DNA of 64,000 nucleotides from Spirochaetia bacterium (GTDB lineage: Bacteria > Spirochaetota > Spirochaetia > SZUA-6 > Bin103), in assembly GCA_965203055.1 (NCBI GenBank), contig OZ241863.1, positions 2,240,001 through 2,304,000 on the forward strand, given 5' to 3'. Position 1 is the first letter of the stretch; every line of letters begins with the position of its first letter. The position numbers were made by a program, and so were the translations under genes. Positions 14,659 to 64,000 of the stretch are shown in pieces. The notes under the pieces were generated by a model. That model had not been told where the DNA came from, ran no database searches, and saw only the letters and a program-made list of their open reading frames with translations.

Positions 14659-14744
14659 ATTTCTTACCGGATACTACCACAATCGGTAATAATGGTAACC
14701 GATCGTGACGGCCGGTAGCTGCTTGCCCCACGGTGTAGCCGGCT

Positions 14745-29605: not shown

Positions 29606-29867
29606 GTTATTCGGGCCGGAATATGCCACCTGCTGGCGTGACTCGGCGGGGCATTTCCAAGCGGCTAGCCGTTCCGTCAGATGCTACTGGAAGCGGTGGT
29701 ATATCTTGGTCATCCTCCTCGTTGTTGTTTCACCATGAGCGCGGCGCGGTACTCGTAGTACGCCTTTCCGGCAGCTTCGAGGGCGGAATCGGTACCAATT
29801 CACGGCAAGGGGGCGCACTTCCAATTTGTTGCCAACCTGAGTAACTTTACTCACAAGGTTAATCACG

Positions 29868-48065: not shown

Positions 48066-48418
48066 GGTTCATCGCCCCAGGTCCACGTGCCGGGCGTCTC
48101 GCGGATGACGGTGGTGGCAGGCGACGAAGCGCGCTGGCGCAGCTTGCCGGCCATTCTGAGCTGCTGAATCGGGCTGGGGGCCGGCTCGGGCACGAGCAGG
48201 TCGAGATAGTCGAGCAGCCGGAGGGCGCGCAGGATCCGAATCAGGCTCGAAGCCTGGCACGACTTGCCCTGCTCCAGGCGCTGCACGGTCGGCGCCGACA
48301 CCCCGGCCTCAACGGCGAGCGCCGCCTGGGTAAGGTTGCGGTTCAACCGCTGGCGGGCAAGGCGGTTGCCAAGCTCCTGCATTGCGGCAGTATCGGAGGT
48401 ATGGTGGGTGATCGTCAT
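48062..48418 (-). CDS. HipB-like XRE HTH antitoxin
   Basis: RLNRNLTQAALAVEAGVSAPTVQRLEQG; stop overlaps the hipA ATG. Confidence 0.88.
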   Translation of the reverse strand: MTITHHTSDTAAMQELGNRLARQRLNRNLTQAALAVEAGVSAPTVQRLEQGKSCQASSLIRILRALRLLDYLDLLVPEPAPSPIQQLRMAGKLRQRASSPATTVIRETPGTWTWGDEP

Positions 48419-48532
48419 TATAAGATCCCTGTTTTGATTTCTTACGCGACATTTCGCCAAGCAATCAATCAAATATAGTGGCTTGCAAGGTAATCTCAAA
48501 CCGTGAAATGGTCAACGTCCGATCGGGCGCGT

Positions 48533-48683: not shown

Positions 48684-49841
48684 TTACTCGTCGTCTCCGG
48701 TCAGGATCTCGAGGTACTCGTGGTAGGCGTAGGCGCGGCCGCGGCGGTTGCCGGTGATCTCGCGCAGTACGCCCAGGCTCTCGAGCAGGGCGATCGCCTT
48801 GCGAGTCGGAGGCGGGGTGAGGTCGAGCAGCTCGCACGCCCGGGGAACGGTCACCACCGGGCTGGCCGGAAGGCACTCCAGCAGCCGGATGGCGGCAACG
48901 GTCGGGCGGTCGTGGGCGATGATGCGGCGGCGGTGGCGCTCGACCAGGGCATACAGTTCCCGCGCGGCGCGGACGCCGTCGTCGGCCGCCTCGCGCACGC
49001 ATGCCAGAAAGAATGCGGTCCAGCCCTCCCAGTCGCCGCCGGTGCGCACCGCGTCCAGCCGCGCGTAGTATTCCGCCTGGGCGCGGCGGAACGCCAGGCT
49101 GAGGTAGAGCAGCGGCTGGTCGAGCAACCGCCAATGCTCGATGAGCAGCGCGATCAGCAGCCGGCCAATGCGGCCGTTGCCGTCCAGGAACGGGTGGATC
49201 GTCTCGAACTGCACGTGCGCGAGTCCAGCGCGCACCAACGGCGGCAAACCGCAATCGGCGTGCCACCAGCGCTCCAGCGCCGCCAGCGCGTCCGGCACCT
49301 CTTCCGGCGGCGGAGGTACGAACCGGGCGTTGCCGGGCCGGCTGCCGCCGATCCAGTTCTGCGAGCGGCGCAGCTCGCCCGGCTGCTTGTCCGCGCCGCG
49401 CGCTCCGCTCATGAGGAGGCGGTGCGCGTCGCGCAGCAGGCGGATGCTGAGCGGCAGGCCGTTCGGGTCGGCGAGCTGCTCGCGGGCGTAGGTGAGGGCT
49501 GCCACGTAGTTGACGACCTCCTGCACGTCGTCAGGGCGGTCGGCGCGAGCGGTCCTCTCGTAGGTAACGGCGTCCCGGAGCGTGGCCTGCGTCCCCTCGA
49601 TCCGCGAAGTGACGACCGCCTCCTTCCGCACGAACCCGTAGAGGAACCAGTCGGTGTCCGGCACCATCGCGCCCGCAACCGCCAGGCGGGACAGCGCGTG
49701 CTGCGCGCCGGCGTGGAGCTCCGCCATCGGCCCGTCCAGCGCCAGGGGAGGCTCCCGCGGCGGCAGCGGGCAGGGAACGAACGCGCGAACCTGCTCTCCC
49801 AGGGTGCTGGTGATGCGGTATCGACCGGTTCGGCGCTCCAC
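48684..49841 (-). CDS. Fic-family protein with C-terminal HTH
   Basis: Canonical HPFLDGNGRIGR; N-terminal TSRIEG. Confidence 0.93.
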   Translation of the reverse strand: MERRTGRYRITSTLGEQVRAFVPCPLPPREPPLALDGPMAELHAGAQHALSRLAVAGAMVPDTDWFLYGFVRKEAVVTSRIEGTQATLRDAVTYERTARADRPDDVQEVVNYVAALTYAREQLADPNGLPLSIRLLRDAHRLLMSGARGADKQPGELRRSQNWIGGSRPGNARFVPPPPEEVPDALAALERWWHADCGLPPLVRAGLAHVQFETIHPFLDGNGRIGRLLIALLIEHWRLLDQPLLYLSLAFRRAQAEYYARLDAVRTGGDWEGWTAFFLACVREAADDGVRAARELYALVERHRRRIIAHDRPTVAAIRLLECLPASPVVTVPRACELLDLTPPPTRKAIALLESLGVLREITGNRRGRAYAYHEYLEILTGDDE

Positions 49842-49912: not shown

Positions 49913-50695
49913 TCAGCCGCGGCCGATGTAGGGCATCCTGGTGGCCATCACCGTGAGAAAGGGAACGTTGGCATCGAGCGGCAGGCGCGCCATGTAGAGC
50001 ACCGCGTCGGCAACGTGCTGCACGTCCATGGTCGGCTCCACCATGGTGGTGCCGTTGGCCTGCGCCACGCCCTCGGACATTCGCTCCGTCATCGGCGTAG
50101 CGGCGTTGCCGATGTCGATCTGGCCGCAGGTAATGTCGAAGGGGCGGCCGTCGAGGGCGGTCGACCTGGTAAGTCCGGTGATGGCGTGCTTGGTGGCGGT
50201 GTAGGGCGCCGAGTCGGGCCGCGGCACGTGGGCCGAGATGGAACCGTTGTTGATGATCCGCCCGCCTGCCGGCCGCTGCGCCTTCATGACCTTGAACGCC
50301 TCTTGGGTGCAGAGAAAGGAACCGGTCAGGTTGGTGTCCACCACCTGTTGCCAGTCCTGCAGACTGAGTTCCTCCAGCGGCACCTTCGGCGCGCCCATCC
50401 CGGCGTTGTTGAATACCAGGTCCACGCGGCCGAACGCGCCGCGCGCGGCGGCGAACAGCGCCCGGACCGAAGCCTGGTCGGCGACGTCCGTCGGCACGAC
50501 CAGCGTTCGGGCCGGCGGCCGCGGCGGGCCGGAAGCCGCCGCCGCCGTCAGCTCCGCAGTCTCCTCCAGCGCCGGGCGGCGGCGCCCGGCCAGGACTACG
50601 GCGTAGCCGTTGGCATGCAGGGTAACCGCAGCCGCCCGCCCCACGCCGCTGCCGGCGCCGGTCACTACCGCCACTCTCATCACAGCCTCCGCCAC
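49913..50695 (-). CDS. Short-chain dehydrogenase/reductase
   Basis: [26 protein letters not shown]. Confidence 0.92.
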
Positions 50696-50716
50696 GTTTG
50701 CCGGTCTCCCGGCCCG

Positions 50717-51403
50717 CTACGATGGTTCCTCGACGCGGACGTAGCGCGCGAGTTCCTGGGAGATGGTCACCGCGTCCTGCGCGTTTTGCGCGTCCTCGCG
50801 CTCCACGATCACCTCTTCATCGGTCACGCTGGTCAACTTGATCGCCACGCCGGGCAGCAGCCGATTTTCGTGCAGCAGTTGCATCAGAGCGGAGTTCTCC
50901 TCCGCCTCCTCGGTGATACGCAGAATCCGGGTGGCCTCACCCGCCTCCACGTCCGACAGCCGCCGGGCATCCAACAGCCGCCGCTCGTCGCGGGAGCCGG
51001 GGAACGGATTGCCGTGCGGGCAGGTCGTGGGCCGCCCCAGCCGCTCGAACAGGTGCGCTTCCAGGCGCGGCGACAGCGAGTGCTCCAACCGGTCAGCCTC
51101 TTCGTCGACGTTCACCCAGTCGAATCCCAATTCGTCGACCAGCAGCCGCTCCAGCAGGTAATGCCGCCGGATGATGCGCTCCGCCTGACTGCGCCCGCGC
51201 GGCGTCAACCGCATTCCGTCGTCGGGATCGAGCACCGCCAGGCCGTGTTGCGCCAGCCGCTTCATCCCCTGGGTGACCGCCGGCGGCGACACCCCCATGC
51301 GCTCGGCGATGCGCGCGCCGACAACCGGCCGGCCTTCGCGCAGCAGCAGGTAGAGTTGGACGAGGTATTCGTTTTCGGTAGCGGAGGAGCGCGTCGCAGT
51401 CAC
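50717..51403 (-). CDS. DtxR/MntR-family metal-dependent regulator with FeoA-like domain
   Basis: NEYL, RRHYLLE, EEADRLEH, CPHGNPFP; GTG 51403 chosen, TTGACC-N18-TATCAT upstream. Confidence 0.9.
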   Translation of the reverse strand: MTATRSSATENEYLVQLYLLLREGRPVVGARIAERMGVSPPAVTQGMKRLAQHGLAVLDPDDGMRLTPRGRSQAERIIRRHYLLERLLVDELGFDWVNVDEEADRLEHSLSPRLEAHLFERLGRPTTCPHGNPFPGSRDERRLLDARRLSDVEAGEATRILRITEEAEENSALMQLLHENRLLPGVAIKLTSVTDEEVIVEREDAQNAQDAVTISQELARYVRVEEPS

Positions 51404-51506
51404 AGCAGCAGTACCAGTCAACCGGCCCGGATGATAGACCGCCTCCGCCGCCCCGGTCAAGGAACCGGGCGCGCGCGCCCGCCGGTACGGCCGGTTCGTT
51501 CGCTCG

Positions 51507-53867
51507 TCACCCCGCGGCGAGCGGCGGCAGGACGCGCCGGCCACCGCCGGTCAGCCCCATGACCACCGGCAGGATGACCAGCGAACCGACCAGCGTAGAC
51601 AGCACCAGCACCCCCAGCAGCAGCCCCGACACGGCGATAGGCGGGAACGTGGACGCGGCCAACATCAGCAGACCGGCGGCCAGCGACAGCGCGCTGATCA
51701 GAATCGAACGGCCCGACCGCACCAGCGTGAGAGCAATCGCTCCGGCGCTGGGCGCCGCGGGGCCGGCCGCCTGAGGTCCGCCGGCCTCGCGCCGGTAGGC
51801 CAGCAGCAAGTGAATGGCATGATCCACGCCGACGCCGATCGACAGCGCCGACAGCATCATGGTCACCCCGTCGAGCGGTATGTCGGCCAGCGCCATGAGC
51901 GTGAAGTTGGTCATGAGGCCGGCAACCACCGGAATCAGGGTGTAGGCGCCGAACAGCAGCGAGCGGAAGCCGACCGCGGTCACCAGGAAGACCAACACCA
52001 CCGAAACGATGGCCGAGCGCACGTGGTCGAGCAGCAAGTCGTCGGCCACCGACAGAATCGCCATCCCGTTGCTCCAGATCTCCACTTCCAGATCGGCCGG
52101 CACGATGGCATGCACCAGCTCCTCGATCCGGGCCGCGGTCTCCCGGAACTCCTGCTCGTTGACCAGCCGTCCGCCATCCGCCGCTTCCGTGATCCGCACG
52201 TTCACGGTGAGGCTGGAAGCCTCCCGGTCGATGGTGGATTGCAACATCGCGTCGGAGGCGCGGTCCTGCGGGAGCTCGTGCAGCAGCCGCGCGAACACAC
52301 CGATGAGCGCCCGGTTGCGCGGCACCTGATAGCTCCCGCGCACGGCCAGGTTCATCCGGCTGAGCTGGGTCACGAACGAGGCCACGTAAGCGACGTCCGG
52401 ATCATCCCGAAGGGCCTGTTCCAGATCGGCGACGCGCTGCAGTCGTTCGGGATCGAGAAAGTATCTTCGCGCCGCCGCGGGAGCGGTCAGCGTGATGTTG
52501 ACGTCGAGCGCGCCGACCAGCTCGCGTCCGACGAACAGGTTGTCCTGGATGAGCTGCGAGTCGCGGCCGAACATGCGCGTGATGTCGGTGTCATATCTGA
52601 GGCGGCCCAGCGACGCGAAGCAGACCACGGCCAACGCCGCGGCGGCCGCGAGCACCACGAACTTCCAGCGCGTCTCTCCCAATCGAGCCAGCGCGCTCAG
52701 GATCGGCGGCGCCTTGGGCGGCTTGCGGGACCGGCTTGGAGGCGGCAGCAGCGTCAGGCAAGCCGGCAGAAAGAACAGCGCCAGCAGCGCGCAGTGGGCA
52801 ATTCCGACCGCCGTGATCAGGCCAAACTCGCGCACCTGGACGAGCGATCCGGTGAGCAGGCTGCTGAACCCGATGATGGTGGTAACGGCGGCCAGCACGA
52901 TGGTGGCGGTAACCCGGGCCATCGCCCACCTGACGCTGGCTTTCAGCAGTCCCTGGCGGCTGGCGCTGGTATGGTAATCGGTCAGCACGTGCACGCTGTA
53001 GGCGCTGCCGAGGCTGAGAACGAGCGGCGGCGTCATGATGCTGGTTATCGTGAAGGAGAGCCCCAGGAGACGCATCGTGCCGATGGTCCAGACCGTCCCT
53101 ACCAGCACCACGAGGAGCGGCATCGCTACCGTCAGAGCGCCGCGAAAGGTCGCGTAGTAGGCGAGCATGATCACCACCAGCGCGGCAATCAGGAGGCGTG
53201 GAAGATCAGTGGTAAGCCGCTGCTTCAAGCGGTAGTCGAAGGTCGGATTGCCGCCCCAGCGAATGGTGTAGTAGTCAGCGACGGGAGCCGTGATGCGCTC
53301 CAGTTCAGTGAACAGGGCGTGATAATCGTCGCGCCGCGGAACGTTGAATACCGCGCCGATCGTGTTGCCGTCGGGCGCCACGAGCAACTTGCGGCTCGCC
53401 GGATCCTCCAGCAGTCTGCGCTTGAGGAGCGCCGCCTCGCCGGCGGTGCCGGGCGCGCGCCCGCCGGCCGCGATCGGTGTGATCGAAATAACCCCGCGTT
53501 CGGTGGTGCGAAACGTCAGCAGGTTGAAGGGCGTGATGCTGCCGGTAACTTCGTCCAGCGCTTCGATTTGCCGAATGGCGCCGTCCAGCGCCGCGAGCGC
53601 GTCCACCGCAAACGCATCGCCGCTCTCGACGGCCATTATCAGAAAGTCGCGTTCGGTGCGCGATTGGCCGCGCTCCCGGAGCAGGCGCGCGACCTCATCC
53701 GGAAACAGCTCGTCGAGATTGGAGCTGACGTCGACGCCGGCGGCCAATACGCCAAACACCAGGGTCAGAACCAGCACCGCGGCGATTACCTGCCAGGCAC
53801 GGCGCTGAGCGAACCCGACGATGCGGAATGCCAGTCCGGCGAGCGGTACGCGAGATTCCTGTGTCAC
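51507..53867 (-). CDS. MMPL/RND-family transporter
   Basis: Two repeats of TM + large loop + 5 TM; LGSAYSVH and IGVGVDHAIH, TTIIGFSSL. Confidence 0.88.
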   Translation of the reverse strand: MTQESRVPLAGLAFRIVGFAQRRAWQVIAAVLVLTLVFGVLAAGVDVSSNLDELFPDEVARLLRERGQSRTERDFLIMAVESGDAFAVDALAALDGAIRQIEALDEVTGSITPFNLLTFRTTERGVISITPIAAGGRAPGTAGEAALLKRRLLEDPASRKLLVAPDGNTIGAVFNVPRRDDYHALFTELERITAPVADYYTIRWGGNPTFDYRLKQRLTTDLPRLLIAALVVIMLAYYATFRGALTVAMPLLVVLVGTVWTIGTMRLLGLSFTITSIMTPPLVLSLGSAYSVHVLTDYHTSASRQGLLKASVRWAMARVTATIVLAAVTTIIGFSSLLTGSLVQVREFGLITAVGIAHCALLALFFLPACLTLLPPPSRSRKPPKAPPILSALARLGETRWKFVVLAAAAALAVVCFASLGRLRYDTDITRMFGRDSQLIQDNLFVGRELVGALDVNITLTAPAAARRYFLDPERLQRVADLEQALRDDPDVAYVASFVTQLSRMNLAVRGSYQVPRNRALIGVFARLLHELPQDRASDAMLQSTIDREASSLTVNVRITEAADGGRLVNEQEFRETAARIEELVHAIVPADLEVEIWSNGMAILSVADDLLLDHVRSAIVSVVLVFLVTAVGFRSLLFGAYTLIPVVAGLMTNFTLMALADIPLDGVTMMLSALSIGVGVDHAIHLLLAYRREAGGPQAAGPAAPSAGAIALTLVRSGRSILISALSLAAGLLMLAASTFPPIAVSGLLLGVLVLSTLVGSLVILPVVMGLTGGGRRVLPPLAAG

Positions 53868-54090
53868 GAAGTGAGCATGCCAGTGGAGCGGGGCCCCTAG
53901 TATCGTATGTTGCGCCGCCGCCGGTCAATCCCGGCCCCGGCGCCGAAAGCGCGGAAAGCGCGGAGCACGCGCACCGGAGAGCGCGGCGCGGCCGGGCGCG
54001 GCCGGCACCGGCGCGGCAGCCGGCACTGTACAGCGCCGGTATCGTGATCTATAGTGATGGCCGGCTCGCTTTGGCGAGCGCCAATGTCTC

Positions 54091-55377
54091 ATGCGCATCT
54101 GCATGGTCGCCCTCGGCACCCAAGGCGATGTCCGGCCGCTGCTTGCCCTCGCCGCGGGGTTGCGAAGCGCCGGCGAGCACGTGACCGTCGCCACGCACCG
54201 CTACTTCGAGCGGATGGTCGTCGAGCGCGGCCTCGGCTTTGAGCCGATCGAAGGGAATCCGCGCGACATCATAGACAGCCGCCTCGGCCGCGGCTGGGTG
54301 CAGTCGGGCACCAATCCGCTGCGGTTCACCCGCTACCTGCGGGCGCTGGCCGGCTCGCTGGGCCAGGAGCTGATGGGCGACTGCTACCGCGCCTGCCGCG
54401 GCGCGCAAGCGATCATCACCGGGCTGCTCGGCTACTTCGCCGCCGGCCACGTCGCCGAACGGCTCGAAGTGCCGTTGGCGGCGGCGTTTCTGCAGCCGGT
54501 CACCCCCAGCCGCCACCTGCCCTCGGTATTCTTCGCCGACGTACGCGCCCCGGCGCCGGCGCGCCGCTACTACAACTTCGCCAGCCACGTGCTCGTCGAG
54601 CTGATGTTCTGGAGCATGCTGCGGCGGGAAGTGAACCGCGCGCGGGCCGCGGTCCTCGGACTGCCGGAAGTGCCGCGGCTGCGCACCTTTGCGCGCAACC
54701 TGCGCGGCAACCCGGTGCTGTACGGGTTCAGCCCGACGGTGCTTCCCCCGCCGGCGGACTGGCCGCCCGAGGTACGGGTAACCGGTTACTGGTTCCTCGA
54801 TGAGAGCGGCGCCGGCCGGCAGCCGGAGGCCGCCCTCGCCGCCTTCCTGCAGCGCGGCGCGGCGCCGGTCTACGTCGGGTTCGGCAGCATGAGCGGCAGC
54901 CACGAGGAGGCCCTCACCGCCATCGTGCTCACCGCGTTGCGCCGCTGCGGGCTGCGCGGCGTCCTTGCCACCGGCTGGGGCGGCCTCGGCGCCGCCCGGC
55001 TCCCGGACGACATGCTGATGCTGGATTGGGCGCCCCACGACTGGCTGTTCCCGCGCAGCGCGGCGATCATCCATCACGGCGGCGCCGGTACCACGGCCGC
55101 CGGGCTGCGCTGCGGCGTGCCGCAGGTCATCGTGCCGTTCTTCGGCGATCAACACTTCTGGGGGCAGCGGGTGCACGAGCTGGGCGCCGGTCCGGCCCCG
55201 GTGGCGCGGCGCCGGCTCACCGCGGCGCGCCTGACCGCGGCGCTGGCCGAAGCGGCCGGCGATCCCCGGATGCGGGCGCGCGCGGCCGCCGCCGGGGCGC
55301 GCATCCGCGCCGAGGACGGCGTCGGGAACGCGGTGGCGGAGGTGCGCCGCGCGCTGCGGGAACGGGTTCCGGCGTGA
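54091..55377 (+). CDS. GT1 glycosyltransferase (sterol/lipid glucosyltransferase-like)
   Basis: GTQGDVRP; WAPHDWLF...HHGGAGTT...PFFGDQHFWG. Confidence 0.92.
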   Translation: MRICMVALGTQGDVRPLLALAAGLRSAGEHVTVATHRYFERMVVERGLGFEPIEGNPRDIIDSRLGRGWVQSGTNPLRFTRYLRALAGSLGQELMGDCYRACRGAQAIITGLLGYFAAGHVAERLEVPLAAAFLQPVTPSRHLPSVFFADVRAPAPARRYYNFASHVLVELMFWSMLRREVNRARAAVLGLPEVPRLRTFARNLRGNPVLYGFSPTVLPPPADWPPEVRVTGYWFLDESGAGRQPEAALAAFLQRGAAPVYVGFGSMSGSHEEALTAIVLTALRRCGLRGVLATGWGGLGAARLPDDMLMLDWAPHDWLFPRSAAIIHHGGAGTTAAGLRCGVPQVIVPFFGDQHFWGQRVHELGAGPAPVARRRLTAARLTAALAEAAGDPRMRARAAAAGARIRAEDGVGNAVAEVRRALRERVPA

Positions 55378-56390
55378 GCGGCGCGCGCGGGCAGGCGCCG
55401 GTGGCGCTGGTCACCGGCGCCTCCGGCATGATCGGCGGCGAGCTGGCGGCGCAACTCGCCGCCGGCGGCCGGCGGGTGCGCTGCCTGCTGCGGCCGGCGA
55501 GCGCCGGCGACCGGCTCGCGGCGCTGCCGGTCGAGGTGGTGCGCGCCGATTTCGATGACCCGGCCGCCCTCGCCGCGGCGATGGCCGGAGTCTCCCGCGT
55601 CTACCACCTCGCCGGCTATCTGCACGCCGGGGCGCCGTTCAGCGGCGGCGAGGACTACGCCCCCTATCGCGCCGCCAACGTCGACTTGACGGACCGCCTG
55701 CTGGCCGCCAGCGCGCGCGCCGGCGTCGAGCGGTTCCTGTTCGCCAGCACCACCGGCGTCTACGGGGCGGCGGCCGCCGCGCCGATCGCCGAAGATGACC
55801 CCACCGAGCCATTCTCGGCCTACGGCCGCTCCAAGCTGGAGGCCGAAGGGCTGGTGCGCGCCTGGGCCCGGCGCGGCCTCGACGTCACCATCGTGCGGCC
55901 CAGCGCCACCTACGGAGCAGGCGATCGGCACTTCCTGCCGGCCGCCCTGGCGCTGGCGCGCATGCGGCGGATACCGCTGGTCGACGGCGGGCGCCATCTG
56001 GTCGACTTCGGCCACGTCAGCGACGTCGCGCGCCTCATGCTGCTGGCCGGCGAGTCGCCGGCGGCCCGCGGCAAGACCTACAACGCCGCCTCCGGGCATC
56101 CGCAGCCGCTGCGCGACCTGTTCTCCGAGTACGCTTCCCTGACCGGCAAGCCGGCCCCCGTGATCGTGCCGGTGCCGGCCGGCCTGTGCCGGGCGCTCGG
56201 GCCGCTGCTGCAGGCGGCGGTAGGCGTCTGCGCGCCCGCGCTGCGGCACCTCGTTACCCGTGACGGGCTGGCCTATCTGGCGCGGGACGTAAGCTACGAC
56301 ATGACCCGCGCCGGCGAGGACCTTGGCTTTCGCCCGCGGGTGGACTTTCGCACCGGCCTGGCGCTGACGCTGCCGGCGGCCCGCGCCTGA
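55374..56390 (+). CDS. Extended SDR (NAD-dependent epimerase / 3-beta-HSD-like)
   Basis: GTGA overlap with the GT; TGASGMIG, YHLAG, YGRSK. Confidence 0.88.
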   Translation: MSGARGQAPVALVTGASGMIGGELAAQLAAGGRRVRCLLRPASAGDRLAALPVEVVRADFDDPAALAAAMAGVSRVYHLAGYLHAGAPFSGGEDYAPYRAANVDLTDRLLAASARAGVERFLFASTTGVYGAAAAAPIAEDDPTEPFSAYGRSKLEAEGLVRAWARRGLDVTIVRPSATYGAGDRHFLPAALALARMRRIPLVDGGRHLVDFGHVSDVARLMLLAGESPAARGKTYNAASGHPQPLRDLFSEYASLTGKPAPVIVPVPAGLCRALGPLLQAAVGVCAPALRHLVTRDGLAYLARDVSYDMTRAGEDLGFRPRVDFRTGLALTLPAARA

Positions 56391-56436
56391 GCAGACCGCC
56401 CGCCAGGCCGGAGCCTGCCTGCCGCGCGCCGCGCTT

Positions 56437-58467
56437 TCAGAACCGGTAGCTGGCGCAGGCCACCTCGATGCCGGGACCGACGGCCAGAAACAGGCCCAGG
56501 GCGCCGGGCTGCGCGGCGCGCGCCGGGATCGCCTCCCAGCCGGCGGCCGCGGCGGAAGTAAACAGATCCTCCGTCCCGCAGGCCACCAGCCGTGCCGGGT
56601 CCAGTTCCAGGGCGGCGGCGAGGCGGGCCAGAAACCGGGGCGAGATCTGCGGCGGCAGGATCACCGCGAAGTCGTCCAGGGTACGCTGCTCCTCGCGCAG
56701 CAGCGCGCCTACGCCGGCGGCCAGCGCATCCAGATAGTAGTCCTGCAGGCGGGGGTCGCTGACGACGCGCAGCCGCGGCGGGCCGGAGGTGTCGGTCTGC
56801 GCGTACGCATGATACCGCTCCAGGTGCTCCGGCCGACTGGCGAAGTAGAAGCTGCGAAATCCCGTCGCGTCCCCGCTGCGCTCCAGCCGCAAAGCCGATC
56901 CGGCGCTGGCCGCGGCCAGCGGGGGCTGCCCCGCCACCGGCGTCTCGCCATACTCCGAGGTGGCCACCACGCCGGTGCCGCCGCGCGACAACAGCAGCCG
57001 CCCGGCCACCTGACAGGCCATGAGCACGCCCGGCGGCCCGTTCATCAGGTCGAACGCCAGCAACTGGCGCGTGCCGGCGTCGGCGCAGGATCCCTTGAGC
57101 CCCATCTCGCGCGCCACCAGCGTGGCCAGCGCCGGTTCGGAAACGAACGCTTCGCGGTACACGCCGGAGTACACCAGCAGTGCCAGATCCGGGGCGGCGC
57201 CGGAGGCCAGCACGCGCGCCGCGGCGCGCGCCGCCAGGGCGACGCTGCCGCCGGTGCCCTCGCCCGCGGGGCGGCAGGTGGCGGCCGCGGCGATGCGAAC
57301 CCGTTCGCCGGCCGGGATGGCGCGGTAATAGTCGCCCGCAGCGCCCGCCCCGACGCGCGGCTCCGGCGCCGGGGCAGGCGCCGCGGGCGCCGGCGGCGGA
57401 GCCCCGCGCCCGTTGGCGCCGGCGGCGAACTCCCCCACTCGATACTGCGCCACGCCGATGGTGATTCCGGACGCCTGGATGCTGAACATCACGCGCTGGC
57501 CGGGCCGCACCGCGGTGCCGTCGATCAGGTCCTTGAGCGCCACCCAGTGCGAGGTGGTGGCCGTGTTGCCGCGGTGCTTGAGGTTGTCCACCATGTTGCC
57601 GGTGTGGCACATCTTGCGCCCGAAGCGGCGGTTCATCAGGCGGGTGGCTTCCTTGATCGAGTTGGAGGAAGTCTGATGCGGGATGTAGTAGAGCGGATCG
57701 TCCACTACCCGGCCGCCGGTCATCAGCGCGTGAAAGTGGGCGACGATGTCGCGCAGCGCCGCCCGCGCCAGCGCCACCGAATCGGTGAACATGATGGCGC
57801 CGTAGGTCTCCGCCGCATGAGCGGTGCACAGGTCGGCGTGCTCCGGCACGGTATACAGGTCGAGGAACTCGAACCCCGTCCCCTGCTCCAGCAGCAGGCA
57901 GACGCCGGCGTCGCCCAGCGTCAGGCACGCCAGGCGCTGGTCATGGCTGCCCTCCAGTTCCCGTTGCGCGGTGGCGGTGAGATGGGTGATGTACTCGCCG
58001 CTCACCACCAGCGCGCGGCGGATGTCGCCGCGGCGGATCAGCTCGTCCACCACCAGGATCGCCGTGAACACCCCGGCGCAGGCGTTGCCGAGGTCGAACG
58101 CCGCGGCGCCGTGCAGCCCGAAGTGCTTGCGCAGCACGGTGGCCGTGGTCGGCTCGATGTTGTAGTTGAGCGGCGCGTCCTGCTTGGAGATGTTGGCCGC
58201 GACGACCAGATCGATGGCCGACGGGTGATGGCGCGACTGCGCCAGACATCGCGCTACCGCGGCCTTGGCCAGGTCGACCGAGAATTCGCCGTCGCCGGCC
58301 ATCCGCCGGGTGGCAATGCCGGTCATTCGCTCCAGCGGCACCCGCGGCCGCCGCCGGCACCCGTTGAGCACCGTCCGGGTAGTCACTTCCCGCTCCGGGA
58401 GATAGACGCCGAGGCTCTCGACGCTGGTGTTGGCGGTCGTCCCCCAGGCAGCCGGCTCCGCGCTCAC
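56437..58467 (-). CDS. Didomain FabH/OleA-like condensing enzyme (active + degenerate domain)
   Basis: Domain 1: IEP, FDLGNACAG, TLGDAG, IPHQ, RGNT. Pro/Ala linker. Domain 2: SEP, FDLMNGPPG, LPPQ, AVGPG. GTG 58467 after GAGGA. Confidence 0.85.
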   Translation of the reverse strand: MSAEPAAWGTTANTSVESLGVYLPEREVTTRTVLNGCRRRPRVPLERMTGIATRRMAGDGEFSVDLAKAAVARCLAQSRHHPSAIDLVVAANISKQDAPLNYNIEPTTATVLRKHFGLHGAAAFDLGNACAGVFTAILVVDELIRRGDIRRALVVSGEYITHLTATAQRELEGSHDQRLACLTLGDAGVCLLLEQGTGFEFLDLYTVPEHADLCTAHAAETYGAIMFTDSVALARAALRDIVAHFHALMTGGRVVDDPLYYIPHQTSSNSIKEATRLMNRRFGRKMCHTGNMVDNLKHRGNTATTSHWVALKDLIDGTAVRPGQRVMFSIQASGITIGVAQYRVGEFAAGANGRGAPPPAPAAPAPAPEPRVGAGAAGDYYRAIPAGERVRIAAAATCRPAGEGTGGSVALAARAAARVLASGAAPDLALLVYSGVYREAFVSEPALATLVAREMGLKGSCADAGTRQLLAFDLMNGPPGVLMACQVAGRLLLSRGGTGVVATSEYGETPVAGQPPLAAASAGSALRLERSGDATGFRSFYFASRPEHLERYHAYAQTDTSGPPRLRVVSDPRLQDYYLDALAAGVGALLREEQRTLDDFAVILPPQISPRFLARLAAALELDPARLVACGTEDLFTSAAAAGWEAIPARAAQPGALGLFLAVGPGIEVACASYRF

Positions 58468-58587
58468 GAATAGGTCCTCTTGTCGTTCACCAATGCTCCA
58501 GTTCGCCGCGGCCACCATACCACAACCGCGCACGTTAGTCGCCGGTCCGCCCGCCCCCGGCTCCGCGCGCTCCCGCCGCCGTTCCCG

Positions 58588-58616
58588 TTGACCGGGAGCG
58601 GCAACAAGTGTAGCGT
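58588..58616 (+). promoter_or_regulatory. Candidate sigma70 promoter TTGACC-N17-TAGCGT
   Basis: In the divergent intergenic region upstream of the luxE-like gene. Confidence 0.45.
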
Positions 58617-58643
58617 GGCGCCCGCCTGGGAACACCGCGCCCG

Positions 58644-60056
58644 ATGTCCGATCACTCAGCCCGAATTCGCGCCCTCCACGACCGGCTCAGAGGCATCGCG
58701 CTGCGCTGGGCCATGGGCAGACCGGTCGACGACGCGGCCGCCCGCGCGGTCCGGCGGGCCGCCATCAGCGCCAATCACCGCCACTACTTCGAACGCATTC
58801 CTATCTACCGCCGGCTTGCCGACCAGGCCGGGATACCGGCGGAGGCGACCTTCGAGCAGATCAGCCGCGAGCTGATGTCCACCGACCACATCTTCAAGTC
58901 CTACCCGCAGGCCCTGCTGGACGGCAACGATTACGGCGCCATGAACGAGTGGCTGCGGCAGGTGTTCGACCGCCCGGTGGAGGTGCCGGTCGCCGGCCTC
59001 GACTCGGTGGACGGGTGGCTGGAGCGGCTGCGCGCGGGCGGGATTCACACGGTGTTCAGTTCCGGCACCAGCGGCCAGATCTCCTTCGTCCCGCGCGACG
59101 GGTATACCTGGTCGCTGCTCACCGGGCTGAGCACCTCCTACGTTCCGCTGTTCCAGATGCGCCAGGGCATTGCGCGCGGGTGGGAGCGGCTGGCGGCGCG
59201 CAGCGCGGCGCGGCTGCTGGCGCCGCAGCGCTTCACGCAGTTCTTTCAACGCCGCGGGCTGCGCAGCTTCGACGGGTTCTTCCTCTCCTTCTCCGGCGGC
59301 ACCCAGGGCACCCAGGTGGTGGGGCAGGTGCTCGCCGGCATGGTCGCCCGCGCCACCTTCCTGTTCGACCTGCAGCTTTCGGCCACCGCGGTGCGGGCGC
59401 TGGTGCGCGGGGCGGCCAGCGACCTCGAGCAGCGCCTGGCCGACGAATTCCTGGAAGCGACGGTGCAGCGCCGGGAGGAAAACTACCGCCGGATGCTGGC
59501 GGCGATGCGCGCCTCGGTCGCCTCCCGCCGGCGCGCGCTGGTGTTCGGCGCGCCGTTCATGATCAAGGAGTTCTGCGACTGGCTGGTCGCCGCCGGCGAG
59601 GAGCTCGCGCTGCGTCCCGGCAGCATGCTGTTCCACGGCGGCGGCTGGAAGAGCTTCGAGGGCGACCGCATCGACGAGTCGGCGCTGCTCGCCCTGGTGG
59701 AGCAGGCCACCGGCGTGACCCCCGGCAACGTCAGCGAAGGCTACTCCATGACCGAGGCGCAGGTGGTGTTTCCGCGCTGCCGGGAGGGACGCTTCCACGT
59801 ACCGCCGATCACCGAGACGGTGATCTTCGACGACGCGCTGGAGCCTCTGGAGGGCGATGACGTGTATGGCGCGCTCGGCTTCCTCGATCCCTTCGCCGCC
59901 TGCTATCCGGGGTTCATCATCACCGGCGACAACGTGCGCCGGCGGACGCAGGAGTGTCCCTGCGGCGTCAGCGGACTCACCATCACCGACGTCGCCCGCG
60001 CCGCGGGCCGCGAGGTGAAGGGATGCGGCGGCATCATGGCCGCCATGCAGGGCTGA
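58644..60056 (+). CDS. LuxE-like acyl-protein synthetase
   Basis: FSSGTSG, GGGWK, YSMTE, FIITGD, C-terminal EVKGCG. Confidence 0.82.
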   Translation: MSDHSARIRALHDRLRGIALRWAMGRPVDDAAARAVRRAAISANHRHYFERIPIYRRLADQAGIPAEATFEQISRELMSTDHIFKSYPQALLDGNDYGAMNEWLRQVFDRPVEVPVAGLDSVDGWLERLRAGGIHTVFSSGTSGQISFVPRDGYTWSLLTGLSTSYVPLFQMRQGIARGWERLAARSAARLLAPQRFTQFFQRRGLRSFDGFFLSFSGGTQGTQVVGQVLAGMVARATFLFDLQLSATAVRALVRGAASDLEQRLADEFLEATVQRREENYRRMLAAMRASVASRRRALVFGAPFMIKEFCDWLVAAGEELALRPGSMLFHGGGWKSFEGDRIDESALLALVEQATGVTPGNVSEGYSMTEAQVVFPRCREGRFHVPPITETVIFDDALEPLEGDDVYGALGFLDPFAACYPGFIITGDNVRRRTQECPCGVSGLTITDVARAAGREVKGCGGIMAAMQG

Positions 60057-60058
60057 CG

Positions 60059-61681
60059 TTGACCGCCCCGACCAGTGGCCGCGCGCCGGCCATCAGCGTC
60101 GACTCCGAGGGAGTGATCCGGCTGCCCGCGCTGGTGCGCGGCCGGTTGATCATGCCGCCGGCGGTGCCCCGCCGGGAGATCGAGGCCGCCTTCGCCGGCG
60201 CCGCGAACGGGCCGGCTGCGGAGCCGCCGGCGCTGGTCAAGTTGCCGGAGGCGTGGGTGTTGCGCGAACCGATCCTGGACCGCGCCGCGATGCGCGCCAC
60301 CGGCGGCTACCAGTATCAGGTCCTGCCGGCGGTGAATCCGCGGCAGTTGCCGGAGGACGATCTCGACGCGCTGGCGGAGGAGCTGTACGAGCTCCCGTTC
60401 GCCGAAGTGCTGAGCTATCTCGACGGCCTGCGGCAGGCCTACGCCGGCGACCGCGAGCTGCAGCGGCAGGTCAAGGCGCTGGCGCGGCAGACCTCGGAGG
60501 CGCCCGATCCCTACGTCGACGCCGGCTTCGCGGTGTTCCCGGCGATGCTGGAGCGCGGCGTGGCCGAGGCGATGGTGGACGCCGAGCTGGCGGCCTGGCA
60601 GATTCCGGGGCGCCGCTTCCTGGACGGTTGGGTCGAGGTGCCGGGCACCCTCTACCCGGCGCCGGTGCACCTGATCCATGCCGGGAACCTGCCGCCGATT
60701 GCCGACTACGACCCGGCGCAGGCGGCGCCGCGCATCCGCGCGCTGCCGACGCGCCAGCTTCACGTCACCGCCGGCAACTCGCCGCTGGTGCCGCTGGCCT
60801 CGCTGCTGCGCGCCCTCTGGACCAAGTCCGCGGCCACCGTCAAGCTGCCCTACGGGGCGACTCTGGCCGGCGCCTACCTGGCCCAGTTGGCCGCCCACAC
60901 CTTTCCCGACCACCCGCTCACCCGCCACCTGTCGGTGCTCTACTGGCCGGGCGGCGACCGGCAGTTCGAGGCGCCGCTGTTCCTGCCGGGACGCTACGAC
61001 CGCATCGTGGTGTGGGGCGCTCCCAACGCGGTGCAGTCGGTCACCGAGCGCGCGGCCTTCACCAAGACGGTCACCTTCAACCCGCGCTACGGGGTCAGCC
61101 TGATCGGCCGCGAGGCGTTCGCGCACCTGGAACAGGTGGTGAGCCGCGCGGTGTGCGACACCCTGATCCAGGGTCAGAAGGCGTGCATCGCCTCGCAGAT
61201 CCACTATCTGGAAGGAGATCAGGCGCAGGCGGAACGCTACGCCGCGGCGTTGCGCGACGAGTTGGGGCGCTGGGACGGCTTCGCGCCGGCCGCGCTGAGC
61301 CGGTCGCAGCAGGGGCAACTGCGGCGCATGAAGCGCGGCAGCTTTCTGGGCGCCACCTGGTTCGAGAATCAGGCCGGCGGGCAGTTTCGCTCCGCGGTGG
61401 CGGTGATGCCGAACGAGTTCAACATCATGGAGCATCCGCTGTGCCGGCTGATCGTGGTGCGTCCGGTGCCGGAGCTGGAGCAGGCGCTGCAGTACCTGCA
61501 TCCGGGGGTGGCCACCGCCGGCGTGTTCCCGGAGGCGCGGCGCCGGGCGCTGAGCGTGCGCATCGGGACGCGCGGCGTCAGCAACGTGCCGCCGCTGGGA
61601 CAGGCCGGCTACACCTGGCCGGGGATGCCGCACGACGGCATGCTGGTGCTCAGCGAACTGGTGGACTGGAAGACCGCCTAG
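60059..61681 (+). CDS. LuxC-like acyl-CoA reductase
   Basis: HVTAGNSP, VKLP, YWPGG, IVVWG, FNPRYG, QKACIAS, HDGMLVLSELV; TTG start approximate. Confidence 0.85.
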   Translation: MTAPTSGRAPAISVDSEGVIRLPALVRGRLIMPPAVPRREIEAAFAGAANGPAAEPPALVKLPEAWVLREPILDRAAMRATGGYQYQVLPAVNPRQLPEDDLDALAEELYELPFAEVLSYLDGLRQAYAGDRELQRQVKALARQTSEAPDPYVDAGFAVFPAMLERGVAEAMVDAELAAWQIPGRRFLDGWVEVPGTLYPAPVHLIHAGNLPPIADYDPAQAAPRIRALPTRQLHVTAGNSPLVPLASLLRALWTKSAATVKLPYGATLAGAYLAQLAAHTFPDHPLTRHLSVLYWPGGDRQFEAPLFLPGRYDRIVVWGAPNAVQSVTERAAFTKTVTFNPRYGVSLIGREAFAHLEQVVSRAVCDTLIQGQKACIASQIHYLEGDQAQAERYAAALRDELGRWDGFAPAALSRSQQGQLRRMKRGSFLGATWFENQAGGQFRSAVAVMPNEFNIMEHPLCRLIVVRPVPELEQALQYLHPGVATAGVFPEARRRALSVRIGTRGVSNVPPLGQAGYTWPGMPHDGMLVLSELVDWKTA

Positions 61682-62685
61682 TCGCCGGCCGGCGGGGCCG
61701 CCGCCCAGGAGCGCGCCAGGCGCCGCAGCCCCTCGGCGATCGACACCGGCGGCGCATAGCCGAGATCGCGGCGCGCGGCGCTGATGTCGAACCAGTGCGA
61801 CGAGGAGATCTCCCGCACCAGGAAGCGGGTCAACGGCGGGGCCGCGGCGGGCCGCAGCAGGCGGCCCGCCCCCTCCGCCAGACCGGCCGCGGCCAGCGCC
61901 AGCCAGCGCGGCACGCGGCGCCGCACCGGCGGCGCGCCGGCCAGTCGCAGCAGCCGGCCCACGAACTGCCACAGGTCCACCGGCTCGCCCTGGGAGATGA
62001 AGTAGGCGCGGCCCGCGGGGCGCGCGCCCGGCGCGAGCCGCTCCACCGCCAGCGCGTGCGCTTCCGCGGCGCTGTCGATGTAGGTCACGTCGATGCGAAA
62101 CGGACCGCGCCCGATCCGCACCAGGCGCCCGCGCCGGGCGCGGGCGATCAGCGCCGGCACCAAGTGGCGGTCGCCGGGGCCCCAGATCAGGTGCGGGCGC
62201 AGCGCCGCGGCGGCCAGCGCGCCGTCGTTGGCCGCCAGCACCGCCTGCTCCGCCAGGGCCTTGGTCCGCGCATAGGGCGAGTCGTAGTGGTCGGGATAGG
62301 GTATCGACTCATCGACGCCGCGCAGGTCGCGGCCGGCGAACACCACGCTCGGCGAGCTGGCGAACACCAGCCGCTCCACCCGGTGGGCGCGGCAGCCGGC
62401 GATTACCGCCTCGGTGCCGGCCACGTTTACCTCGTGGAAGCGGCGCGCGGTGCCCGGAGTGCCGGGTACCAGCGCCGCGGCGTGCACTACCGCCCGGCAG
62501 CCGGCGCAGGCCGCGGCGGTGGCGCGCGGGTCCGCCAGGTCGCCGCGCACCTGCTCCACGCCGCAGGCCGCCAGCGCCGGGTAGCTGCCCCGCGCGTAGC
62601 TGCGCACCTGATGGCCGCGGCGCAGCAGCCGCTCCACCACGGCGCGTCCCAGGAAGCCGCCGCCGCCGGTCACCAGCACCTTCAC
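61678..62685 (-). CDS. OleD-like extended SDR (2-alkyl-3-oxoalkanoate reductase-like)
   Basis: VLVTGGGGFLG...RGSYPAL...GVEQVRGDLAD, SSPSVV, YARTK, LRPHLIWGPGD, AYFISQGEP. Confidence 0.82.
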   Translation of the reverse strand: MKVLVTGGGGFLGRAVVERLLRRGHQVRSYARGSYPALAACGVEQVRGDLADPRATAAACAGCRAVVHAAALVPGTPGTARRFHEVNVAGTEAVIAGCRAHRVERLVFASSPSVVFAGRDLRGVDESIPYPDHYDSPYARTKALAEQAVLAANDGALAAAALRPHLIWGPGDRHLVPALIARARRGRLVRIGRGPFRIDVTYIDSAAEAHALAVERLAPGARPAGRAYFISQGEPVDLWQFVGRLLRLAGAPPVRRRVPRWLALAAAGLAEGAGRLLRPAAAPPLTRFLVREISSSHWFDISAARRDLGYAPPVSIAEGLRRLARSWAAAPPAGD

Positions 62686-62693
62686 GGCGCGGC

Positions 62694-63188
62694 CTAGGCG
62701 GGGTCGGAGCGCGCCGGCGCCGGTCCCGCCGGCCCCCCGCTCGTCGGCCCCCCGCGGCCGGCCAACTTGCGCCACGTGGCGTACAGGAACCAGCAGATGA
62801 GGAGGTTGGCCGGCAGCGTGACGAGCAGCGCAGCGGTGCCGAACGGCGTGATGCTCTCGGCGAAGACCAGATAGGTCCAGTCGGCGAACAGCTCGCTGAG
62901 GCGGATGCCGGTCACCAGCAGCAGCCAATGCGCGGCGCGGCGCCAGCGCGGCAGGGCCAGAATCTGCACCGCGGCGAACGCGGCCCAGATGGCGCCGGTG
63001 CGGCGCAGCAGCCCCTGCGGGTCGACGTAGGCGGCGTCGTGCAGGAGGCGGTACCAGATCTGCGGCAGCAGGAACGCCCCCACCGCGACCAGCAGGTCGA
63101 ACGCCACCAGCGCGATCAGGATCACGTCCACCAGCCGCCCGCGCGCGGCGCCGATCCGGGCATTACTCACGTAGGTCGATGACAACAT
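62694..63188 (-). CDS. Small 4-TM hypothetical membrane protein
   Basis: Four hydrophobic segments; ends 8 nt before the oleD-like start; start uncertain (63188 or 63170). Confidence 0.7.
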   Translation of the reverse strand: MLSSTYVSNARIGAARGRLVDVILIALVAFDLLVAVGAFLLPQIWYRLLHDAAYVDPQGLLRRTGAIWAAFAAVQILALPRWRRAAHWLLLVTGIRLSELFADWTYLVFAESITPFGTAALLVTLPANLLICWFLYATWRKLAGRGGPTSGGPAGPAPARSDPA

Positions 63189-63249
63189 GGGCGTGCGCCT
63201 GAGTATAGCGAGAGACGGGCGCGCGCCGCCGGTGTAGAGTGGCGGCGTC

Positions 63250-64000
63250 ATGTTCGCCTGGGTATTGCACGGGCGGCGCGACCTGCGCCGCGAGCGGCGG
63301 CCCGATCCGGCGCCGGCCGCCCACGAAGTGGTACTGCGCGTCGAGCGGGTCGGGATCTGCGGCAGCGACGTCCACTACTACCGCGACGGCCGGGTGGGGG
63401 CGTTCGTGCCGTCCGGCCCGTTCGTGCTCGGCCACGAAGTCGCCGGCGAGGTGGTGGCGGCCGGGAGCGCGGTGGAGCGGCTGCGGGCCGGCGACCGGGT
63501 GGCGGTCGATCCCTCGCAGGCGTGTCTGCGCTGCTCCTGGTGCCGGAGCGGGCGCAGCAACCTGTGCCCGGAGATGCGCTACTTCGGCAGCGCGGCCAGC
63601 GATCCGCCGACCGACGGCGCGCTGTGCGAACTGAAGGCGGTGCCGGCCGCCAACTGCCATCGGCTCGGCGACGGCCTGAGCTACGCCTGCGGCGCGCTGC
63701 TGGAACCGCTGGCGGTGGCGTGCCACGCCGTGCTGCGCGCCGGCAGCCTGGCCGGGCGCCGGGTCGCGGTCAGCGGCGGCGGGACCATCGGCCAGCTCGT
63801 GGCCGCGGTTGCGCGCGCCCTCGGCGCCGGCCACGTGACGCTGGCCGACCCGCGCCCCGCGGCGCGCGCCGCGGCCGCGCAGCGCGCCGACGAGGTACTC
63901 GATCCCGCCGCCGGCGAGGCGCCGGCGGGCGGCCCTGCGCAGGTGACCTTCGAAGCGGCCGGAGCCGCGGACTCGCTGCGCTGGGCGCTGGCGCATACCG
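63250..64000 (+). CDS. Zn-dependent polyol/sugar-acid dehydrogenase (3' partial)
   Basis: Own translation from ATG 63250: GICGSDVHYY, VLGHE, CLRCSWC...NLC, LEPLAV, GGGTIG; runs off the window. Confidence 0.9.
   Translation, partial: MFAWVLHGRRDLRRERRPDPAPAAHEVVLRVERVGICGSDVHYYRDGRVGAFVPSGPFVLGHEVAGEVVAAGSAVERLRAGDRVAVDPSQACLRCSWCRSGRSNLCPEMRYFGSAASDPPTDGALCELKAVPAANCHRLGDGLSYACGALLEPLAVACHAVLRAGSLAGRRVAVSGGGTIGQLVAAVARALGAGHVTLADPRPAARAAAAQRADEVLDPAAGEAPAGGPAQVTFEAAGAADSLRWALAHT

Follow-up and report, generated by a model that had tools for sequence, protein, structure and literature searches.

Our results revealed, in a high-GC (guanine plus cytosine) diderm Spirochaetia bacterium, a contiguous cluster of eight lipid-related genes built around a fused double ketoacyl synthase III (KAS III), which we call diFabH. 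The window analyzed herein, that is, the whole stretch of 64,000 nucleotides (G000:C1:2240001-2304000; handles beginning with G denote genomes, with L loci, and with P database proteins), has ~70% GC across its DNA and lies on a single 4.56-Mb contig of a 95.9% complete genome. The cluster consists of two layers: a core of diFabH, an HpnA-like extended short-chain dehydrogenase/reductase (SDR), and a UGT51-like family 1 glycosyltransferase (GT1), and an add-on of a LuxE/LuxC pair, an OleD-type reductase, and a four-transmembrane (4-TM) protein. We see about an even chance that these layers form a single pathway, in which diFabH condenses fatty acyl groups head-to-head and the product is keto-reduced and glycosylated, with the OleD-type enzyme and LuxE/LuxC (and possibly an alcohol dehydrogenase, ADH) leading, within one genus, to a 2-alkyl-1,3-diol glycoside, and with an MMPL protein as an optional exporter. 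The strongest new points are the fused, LstA/LstB-like architecture that carries the OleA Glu-Pro motif, the size and genomic contexts of the diFabH family, and the division between the core and a genus-specific LuxCE/OleD add-on.

We first consider the architecture of diFabH (676 residues, as in the database protein P0002). Its N-terminal half matches the Pfam families ACP_syn_III and ACP_syn_III_C, and its C-terminal half is an internal duplicate of the first (hhalign profile-profile comparison, probability 99.9, E 1e-34) that has degenerated, with the catalytic Cys and His both replaced by Pro and the Asn lost. Across 67 aligned family members, with 37-83% identity to the query, Cys148, His282, and Asn319 of the N-half are invariant (67/67), as is Glu462-Pro463-Ala464 of the otherwise degenerate C-half (67/67); in the N-half, Glu123 is at least 90% conserved and Pro124 is invariant. 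The hhalign comparison placed Glu123-Pro124 on Glu462-Pro463, and in both halves the Glu-Pro pair sits 25 residues ahead of the Cys position. As an internal control, the housekeeping FabH of the same genome has Phe-Pro there. According to the excerpt of PMC7064751, almost every OleA protein has Glu at residue 117 with Pro as the next residue, and this Glu117 works within the other subunit's active site, where it is essential for the Claisen condensation. By both motif and position, diFabH carries this signature, and it shares with OleA of Xanthomonas campestris (3row, 5vxd) the KAS III fold, the Cys-His-Asn triad, the Glu-Pro ~25 residues before the Cys, and an OleD-type reductase nearby. It differs in that OleA is a homodimer of single-domain subunits, whereas diFabH is a single chain of two fused halves, of which one is active.

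Another parallel is the lipstatin enzyme pair LstA/LstB, for which the excerpt of PMC12141560 places the triad on one partner (LstA C128/H271/N305) and the essential Glu on the other (E60A in LstB abolishes activity). In that system, too, an OleD homologue follows. Judged by these published residue roles, diFabH looks like a single-chain analogue of that heterodimer, with LstA and LstB joined in one polypeptide, but without a beta-lactone synthetase downstream. We take NltA/NltB to be another KAS III heterodimer of this kind. The AlphaFold2 model of diFabH forms one compact body (pLDDT 90.5, pTM 0.93) with the KAS III/thiolase fold (Foldseek TMt 0.82-0.88 to FabH and OleA). Searched alone against the PDB, the C-half gave a single weak match (5by7, E 0.015), and the Protein Atlas gave only generic names for diFabH. 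Apart from the housekeeping FabH, PF08541 matched in the whole genome only diFabH, once in each half; with no other KAS III present, diFabH is the sole candidate to supply a 2-alkyl-3-oxo acid.

The genes were named with Pfam and NCBIfam profile searches, and their coding frames were chosen by codon-position GC (third-position GC, GC3, 0.85-0.94). The features are as follows.

51507-53867, minus strand: MMPL/HAE3-type RND (resistance-nodulation-division) lipid exporter, a variable accessory gene (Pfam, NCBIfam)
54091-55377, plus strand: GT1 glycosyltransferase, UGT51 (sterol 3-beta-glucosyltransferase)-like (Pfam, PDB match)
~55401-56390, plus strand: HpnA-like extended SDR of the 3-beta-hydroxysteroid dehydrogenase (3-beta-HSD) family (start GTG 55401 or 55374)
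56437-58467, minus strand: diFabH, fused double KAS III, 676 residues (start GTG 58467; 58518 and 58635 also possible)
58468-58643, no strand: divergent intergenic region of 176 bp between diFabH and the LuxE-like gene (start-codon survey)
58644-60056, plus strand: LuxE-like acyl-protein synthetase, the adenylating half of a putative split carboxylic acid reductase (Pfam LuxE)
60023-61681, plus strand: LuxC-like acyl-thioester reductase, long form, 552 residues from ATG 60023 (Pfam LuxC)
61678-62685, minus strand: OleD-type 2-alkyl-3-oxoalkanoate reductase-like SDR, 335 residues (NF042422; start by codon-position analysis)
62694-63251, minus strand: 4-TM membrane protein, family unassigned by Pfam/NCBIfam (GC3 0.94, conservation)
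63250-64000, plus strand: Zn-dependent ADH, running off the window (Pfam ADH_N, 95.8 bits)

The long open reading frames originally listed for the SDR (454 residues), LuxC (575 residues), and OleD (416 residues) overshoot the true starts. For OleD, substitutions among six relatives at 62800-62928 follow the 4-TM frame (60 at its codon position 3 versus 33 and 18), which places the OleD start at GTG 62685, a few bases past the 4-TM stop; the 4-TM gene immediately precedes the OleD-like gene, and the two share an operon. GT1 and the SDR converge on diFabH, diFabH and LuxE diverge over the 176 bp, and LuxE and LuxC converge on the OleD and 4-TM genes. A preliminary description, made from the DNA alone, had reported eight contiguous lipid-related genes in alternating transcription units, and both the gene set and the alternating arrangement held up; it was right in outline, with part of its claims supported. 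Since we found no further family-matching open reading frame between the eight genes, the cluster lacks luxA, luxB, luxD, OleB, and OleC, again as that description had stated.

Beyond the right end of the window, following the ADH, are two tandem outer-membrane beta-barrel/surface-antigen genes (L021 338-1829; G000:C1:2304338-2305829), which indicate a diderm envelope. An actinobacterial origin, which the GC content and the MMPL gene might suggest, was rejected in view of these genes and of the relatives, four of which are labelled Spirochaetia; one protein homologue is named Spirochaetaceae. DNA of the cluster occurs in public sequencing runs that bear the label sponge metagenome or marine metagenome; of the 21 listed, 8 contain half or more of the sampled words, and none of the 21 is an RNA run. 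The host is probably sponge-associated, but these runs provide a habitat lead only, as those that match best could come from the source sample itself.

The two layers emerged from synteny. diFabH occurs in 8 of the 401 genomes of the class (including G000), namely in all six other members of the genus, in none of the five of the sister genus, and in the distant spirochaete G010. Among the eight same-genus loci compared (the window, L001, L002 = G353, L003 = G371, L004, G082, G192, and L037), seven retain GT1, SDR, diFabH, LuxE, LuxC, OleD, and 4-TM in the same order, with diFabH and LuxE back to back at every locus that has both and with the 4-TM protein 64-82% identical across loci. The remaining locus, L002, has diFabH alone. 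Given that G353, which lacks LuxC and OleD, also lacks GT1 and the SDR at this locus, parts of the add-on and of the core seem to have been lost together. In G010 (2.3 Mb, GC 56% versus 70%), the core recurs among unrelated flanking genes, with diFabH convergent with an SDR-GT1-GT1 series, tail-to-tail as in the window (45% identity). Hence, the co-occurrence in other genomes that the preliminary description had put forward as a check was found for the full set among same-genus kin, and beyond the genus for diFabH, SDR, and GT1 only.

Its inclusion of the MMPL gene in the cluster fits three of the seven full same-genus clusters: the window, L003 (an 81%-identical copy at the same place), and L001 (a 41%-identical paralogue). 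The gene is absent from the other four (L004, G082, G192, and L037). The protein has an MMPL domain (PF03176, 94.3 bits; cut-off 20.5), with weaker sterol-sensing-domain and Patched matches; at the subfamily level it reached 193 bits for TIGR00921 (HAE3), under the cut-off of 352, and 98 bits for HpnN. The Zn-ADH is a possible aldehyde reductase of the pathway, of uncertain membership; it lies near the cluster in L001 (~2.4 kb away), L003, L004, G082, G192, and L037, all close kin. In L003 (10001-12232; G371:C1:1344158-1346263), diFabH is spread over two overlapping frames (residues 13-431 and 410-694), which reflects a frameshift or else a mistake in the long-read assembly.

Within the core, GT1 matches the Pfam families EryCIII-like_C, Glyco_transf_28, and UDPGT. 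Its best solved relative is the yeast sterol 3-beta-glucosyltransferase (5xvm/5gl5; E 5e-67, residues 5-421; next GtfA, 9e-35), which glycosylates the secondary alcohol of a bulky lipid. The enzyme is thus probably of the lipid-alcohol type, as had been proposed, with full-length similarity to UGT51 and the bacterial sterol glucosyltransferase-type GT1 enzymes; a sterol acceptor is suggested by sequence similarity only, and the acceptor here is probably an acyclic two-tailed alcohol instead. The extended SDR matches Epimerase (154 bits) and 3Beta_HSD (53 bits) in Pfam, and HpnA (136 bits), OleD (118), and a thioester-reductase domain (69) in NCBIfam, and it has copies of 45% identity in G010, at the same tail-to-tail position, and of 46% in L042. 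At this and other loci, the SDRs that neighbour diFabH resemble HpnA, SdmB, and OleD and belong to the 3-beta-HSD family, which acts on beta-hydroxy/beta-keto-acid motifs.

As for the add-on, the OleD-like protein matches NF042422 end to end (396.7 bits over positions 1-328 of 329), in agreement with the earlier assignment; the highest score from an unrelated family was 131 bits (HpnA). Its relatives at 59-64% identity include Geotalea/Geobacteraceae proteins, and one of the relatives is named 2-alkyl-3-oxoalkanoate reductase by JGI. The LuxE- and LuxC-like assignments were likewise supported. LuxC-like matches Pfam LuxC at 131.5 bits and 7xc6_A at E 3e-14, and its GQKAC aligns with DQQAC of that chain, whose index 285 is Cys296 of the 488-residue protein; LuxE-like matches Pfam LuxE at 62 bits and 7xc6_E at E 4e-11, and its C-terminal REVKGCGG falls on the LuxE motif TRxxKGCxLS, with the Cys tenth from the C-terminus, as is Cys364. 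The excerpt of PMC9157457 gives Cys296 as the LuxC active site and 358-TRxxKGCxLS-367 with Cys364 for LuxE. Both catalytic cysteines are kept, so the pair looks like a working split carboxylic-acid reductase. Relative to the LuxC-LuxE complex of Photobacterium phosphoreum (7XC6), with which they share adjacent, co-oriented genes, alignment is limited to C-terminal portions (two thirds of the LuxC-like and 40% of the LuxE-like protein), the window proteins are ~65-100 residues longer, and there is no luciferase or LuxD gene in the cluster. Neither N-terminal part had a Pfam match at E up to 10. The 4-TM protein had no match in Pfam (E up to 10) or NCBIfam, and its Atlas clusters were all named "hypothetical protein."

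The long-form LuxC has ~50%-identical homologues in several other phyla, versus 26-32% identity, in unrelated contexts, across 401 genomes of its own phylum, which suggests that the LuxE/LuxC cassette was acquired. Four distant LuxE-LuxC pairs were found in the phylum, and the three examined (G587, G611, and G606) all lie in unrelated contexts. In the last of these (L124 9522-12789; G606:C8), genes for a LuxC-like protein, a luciferase-like monooxygenase, and a LuxE-like protein stand in a row; to our knowledge, this lineage is not known to be luminous.

Beyond the spirochaetes, diFabH belongs to a large family. Of 8000 scored candidates, 234 are related to the whole protein at E <=1e-5, and most of these are ~670 residues long. 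A search with the C-half by itself gave 625 representatives at 50% clustering, of which 323 reach E <=1e-10. A diFabH-type C-half is always C-terminal, whether in didomain proteins of ~670 residues, in proteins of ~270-300 residues, which may be fragments or stand-alone partners, or at the ends of synthetases of 1200-3900 residues. Three of these synthetases (P0254, P0268, and P0303; 1809-3854 residues) are nonribosomal peptide synthetase (NRPS) or polyketide synthase (PKS)-NRPS megasynthases that end in a didomain KAS III (diKS), with the domain orders C-A-T-diKS, FAAL-T-C-A-T-diKS, and FAAL-T-KS-AT-MT-T-C-A-T-diKS, where FAAL is a fatty acyl-AMP ligase. This suggests that the didomain KAS III can serve as a chain-terminating condensing domain.

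A metagenome scan yielded 246 diFabH loci, of which 80 were kept, 79 of them distant (35-43% identity). Because many of these loci are short, the neighbour counts are lower bounds: FAAL-like genes at 44 of the 79 (30 at >=30% identity), phosphopantetheinyl transferase (PPTase) and cytochrome P450 genes at 23 each, acyl carrier protein (ACP) genes at 21, luciferase-like monooxygenases at 17, and FabG-type ketoreductases (KR) at 14. Any SDR-type reductase was found at 24 of the 79, with HpnA-like SDRs at 8 and a further 3 scored as OleD-like, and any glycosyltransferase at 15, with GT1 homologues (37-49% identity) at 8 and monogalactosyldiacylglycerol (MGDG)-synthase-like enzymes at 7. Pairings like that of the core, with a glycosyltransferase or an SDR, also occur on soil and marine metagenome contigs, and GT1 homologues follow FAAL-ACP-diFabH fusions in L084, L098, and L108, from unrelated environments. 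In a FastTree phylogeny of 75 rows (seven others were removed because they duplicated a locus, contained a stop, or had <600 residues aligned), the glycosyltransferase-linked loci are spread over several separate clades; the window, L037, and G010 group together, sister to L042/L043/L078 (SDR context without FAAL), with local support of 96-100 but long branches.

Two further arrangements of the family stood out. The MGDG-synthase-like form, FAAL(-ACP) ... ANL-like - diFabH - (PPTase) - KR - glycosyltransferase (L058, L059, L064, L065, L073, L089, and L097), is a second, independent link between diFabH and a glycosyltransferase. In addition, a recurrent low-GC (35-46%) cluster, with ACP - luciferase-like monooxygenase - FAAL divergent from diFabH - P450 - PPTase, is present, complete or partial, at >=10 metagenome loci, including L041, L044, L046, L052, L083, L088, L090, and L116. 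We know of no description of this cluster.

In the pathway we propose, the N-half of diFabH would take one fatty acyl group on Cys148, and Glu462 of the C-half would act as the base across the domain interface, deprotonating the alpha-carbon of a second acyl thioester. By analogy with OleA and LstA/LstB, a non-decarboxylative head-to-head Claisen condensation would then give a 2-alkyl-3-oxo acid. The SDR may reduce the keto group of this acid, or of the ketone that would arise on loss of CO2, and GT1 would glycosylate the resulting secondary alcohol. In the second layer, OleD would form the 2-alkyl-3-hydroxy acid, which LuxE would adenylate and hand over via its tail cysteine to the LuxC cysteine; reduction by LuxC with NAD(P)H would yield an aldehyde, and the SDR or the Zn-ADH might reduce this to a 2-alkyl-1,3-diol, so that the carboxyl carbon is kept. 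Where present, MMPL could export the glycolipid towards the outer membrane. Tailoring by LuxCE, SDR, and GT1 would set this route apart from OleABCD. As far as OleC is concerned, an ordinary olefin pathway is not completed elsewhere in the genome: PF00501 gave five matches in four open reading frames (an acetyl-CoA synthetase, a FadD11-like ligase, an acetoacetate-CoA-ligase-like protein, and MenE), and an OleC-like ANL enzyme was not among them. The preliminary description had called for a genome-wide check of oleB and oleC, and for the OleB alpha/beta-hydrolase no separate search was made.

Several results weigh against this pathway. The preliminary description had called diFabH an OleA/FabH-like didomain enzyme, and the Glu-Pro motif in both halves bears out the OleA side of that name, but overall the protein is nearer FabH: the N-half matched FabH in the PDB at E 3.7e-14 (1ub7, phmmer) versus a partial match to OleA at 1.1e-5 (3row), NCBIfam returned only generic KAS III models and no OleA model, and Foldseek ranked FabH first (TMt 0.86) and OleA 36th (TMt 0.82), with both matching so well that the fold does not discriminate between them. 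The OleD-like protein falls below the NF042422 cut-off of 580 bits, as do the five nearest outside relatives that were scored (444-478 bits), and the LuxC and LuxE equivalog scores are far under their cut-offs (80 versus 750 bits and 52.6 versus 550). The full gene combination is confined to one genus, whose members are close kin; LuxC and OleD-type genes were not found anywhere in the genomes of G353 and G010; and neither LuxE nor LuxC lies next to diFabH at any of the 79 distant metagenome loci. In most other clades, diFabH stands alongside FAAL/ACP or ends NRPS/PKS megasynthases, and the chemistry of the family may therefore be broader than that of OleA.

These points leave room for other explanations. 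Conceivably, two unrelated modules are merely neighbours, with the core making a glycolipid, LuxE/LuxC and the Zn-ADH turning ordinary fatty acids into aldehydes and alcohols, and the OleD-like SDR and 4-TM protein serving another substrate. The lack of LuxE/LuxC at the distant loci, a core without LuxC and OleD in G010, the unrelated contexts of the LuxE-LuxC pairs in the Spirochaetota genomes, and the separate cassette suggested by the LuxC identities would all fit. However, the genes are contiguous at seven of the eight same-genus loci, diFabH and LuxE share their divergent spacer, an OleD-type enzyme needs a 2-alkyl-3-oxo acid, for which diFabH is the only non-FabH KAS III available, and G353 lacks parts of both layers; we consider such independence unlikely. 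It is quite doubtful, too, that diFabH is not OleA-like and instead acts as a decarboxylative KAS III primer enzyme, a PpyS/DarB-type pyrone or resorcinol ketosynthase, or an acyltransferase, giving a small glycosylated polyketide-like lipid. Its proximity to FabH in sequence and fold would agree with this, as would relatives fused to or beside FAAL, ACP, PPTase, P450, and NRPS/PKS modules, in the manner of natural-product ketosynthases, and pyrone synthases also use Glu at the diFabH Glu position. Nevertheless, the genome has a single ACP (AcpP-like and far from the cluster), the cluster contains no FAAL or PPTase, an OleD-type partner is adjacent, and an invariant Glu-Pro in an otherwise dead half is not easily accounted for if the enzyme is decarboxylative.

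Two more distant explanations concern the neighbours of diFabH. Sterols of a sponge host might be imported or exported by an MMPL protein bearing a sterol-sensing domain, with the two SDRs of the 3-beta-HSD family oxidizing or reducing them and GT1 attaching glucose. The sterol glucosyltransferase similarity of GT1, the match of both SDRs to PF01073 (and of the extended SDR to the SdmB and HpnA models), the weak matches of MMPL to sterol-sensing, HpnN, and BstA models, and the sponge-labelled runs are in keeping with this. We nonetheless judge it very unlikely, for it leaves diFabH and LuxE/LuxC without a part to play, the fusions in L084, L098, and L108 are followed by GT1 homologues, the OleD model scores three-fold above the sterol and hopanoid models, and no squalene or oxidosqualene cyclase was matched genome-wide. 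A hopanoid reading was rejected, as there was no match to a squalene-hopene cyclase. It is more improbable still that the LuxE-like protein replaces OleC, such that the adenylated 2-alkyl-3-hydroxy acid closes to a beta-lactone and yields a lipstatin- or nocardiolactone-like product. OleA-like and OleD-like genes do stand here with an adenylating enzyme, without OleC in the genome or OleB in the cluster, and beta-lactone pathways use OleA, OleD, and OleC homologues (PMC7064751, excerpt). Yet the acyl-transfer cysteine of LuxE and the reductase cysteine of LuxC are kept, pointing to thioester transfer and reduction, and GT1 needs a free hydroxyl group.

If the head-to-head pathway is correct, a single-chain pseudo-heterodimer would be a third form of condensing enzyme beside the OleA homodimer and the LstAB heterodimer, and one with ties to a large unstudied family. 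Reduction and glycosylation, rather than conversion to an olefin or a beta-lactone, would be a new fate for head-to-head condensed fatty acids. The outer membrane of spirochaetes depends on glycolipids, and for these bacteria the products would be a new class of membrane lipid. In the literature searched, which lay outside subscription journals, no description of the OleA, LuxC, and LuxE combination was found; by their titles and abstracts, the matches concerned biofuels, lux reporters, and bacterial signalling. Nothing relevant was among the matches listed for FAAL, KAS III, and glycolipids or for didomain FabH-like head-to-head enzymes, nor was a pathway among those for simplexide biosynthesis or for OleA with long-chain secondary-alcohol glycolipids.

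These glycolipids provide a lead based on the predicted chemistry. As described in the excerpt of PMC4229102, the simplexides of marine sponges carry a Glc-Gal disaccharide and a pair of alkyl chains, many of which bear a methyl branch on the second- or third-to-last carbon; such tails can end iso or anteiso, as is typical of bacteria. The simplexide skeleton would follow from an OleA-type condensation, with CO2 loss, ketoreduction, and glycosylation as the later steps, and the predicted core product resembles simplexides and clathrosides in being a two-tailed long-chain secondary alcohol with one or more sugars; the two GT1 genes of the G010 core may be compared with the disaccharide. The OleD/LuxCE part of the cluster would be superfluous for simplexide synthesis. 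The core thus offers a genetic hypothesis for the origin of two-tailed, ester-free glycolipids such as the immunoactive simplexides. A bolder extension is that the core is the missing route to orphan sponge glycolipids (simplexide-type secondary-alcohol and very-long-chain alcohol glycosides) in symbionts such as these spirochaetes, that OleD/LuxCE diverts the intermediate to a 2-alkyl-1,3-diol ("carba-ceramide-like") glycolipid, and that terminal head-to-head condensation is a general, as yet undescribed role of the didomain KAS III family; taken whole, we regard it as rather unlikely.

Outside the cluster, the window contains common genes of transport and metabolism. The region immediately left of the cluster (49913-51544) encodes a DtxR/IdeR-family metal regulator, which has a FeoA domain at its C-terminus, and a classical SDR; the two form a conserved backbone that abuts GT1 directly in relatives without MMPL; in the window, the start of the regulator gene overlaps the MMPL stop by 38 nucleotides. 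Just left of this backbone are a HipA-type kinase toxin gene (433 residues) followed by a small same-strand open reading frame, and a separate Fic/DOC protein with Fic_N and helix-turn-helix domains (46764-48499 and 48684-49841). Beside these toxin genes lies an RNA ligase with a PHA02142-type OB-fold domain (45401-46453), a pair that we take to be phage-typical. Elsewhere in the window are an ISL3-family transposase fragment (32467-33117), two AAA_14/DUF4143 ATPase genes (13333-14673 and 29841-30773), a sulfatase (11740-13272), and several peptide ABC transporters.

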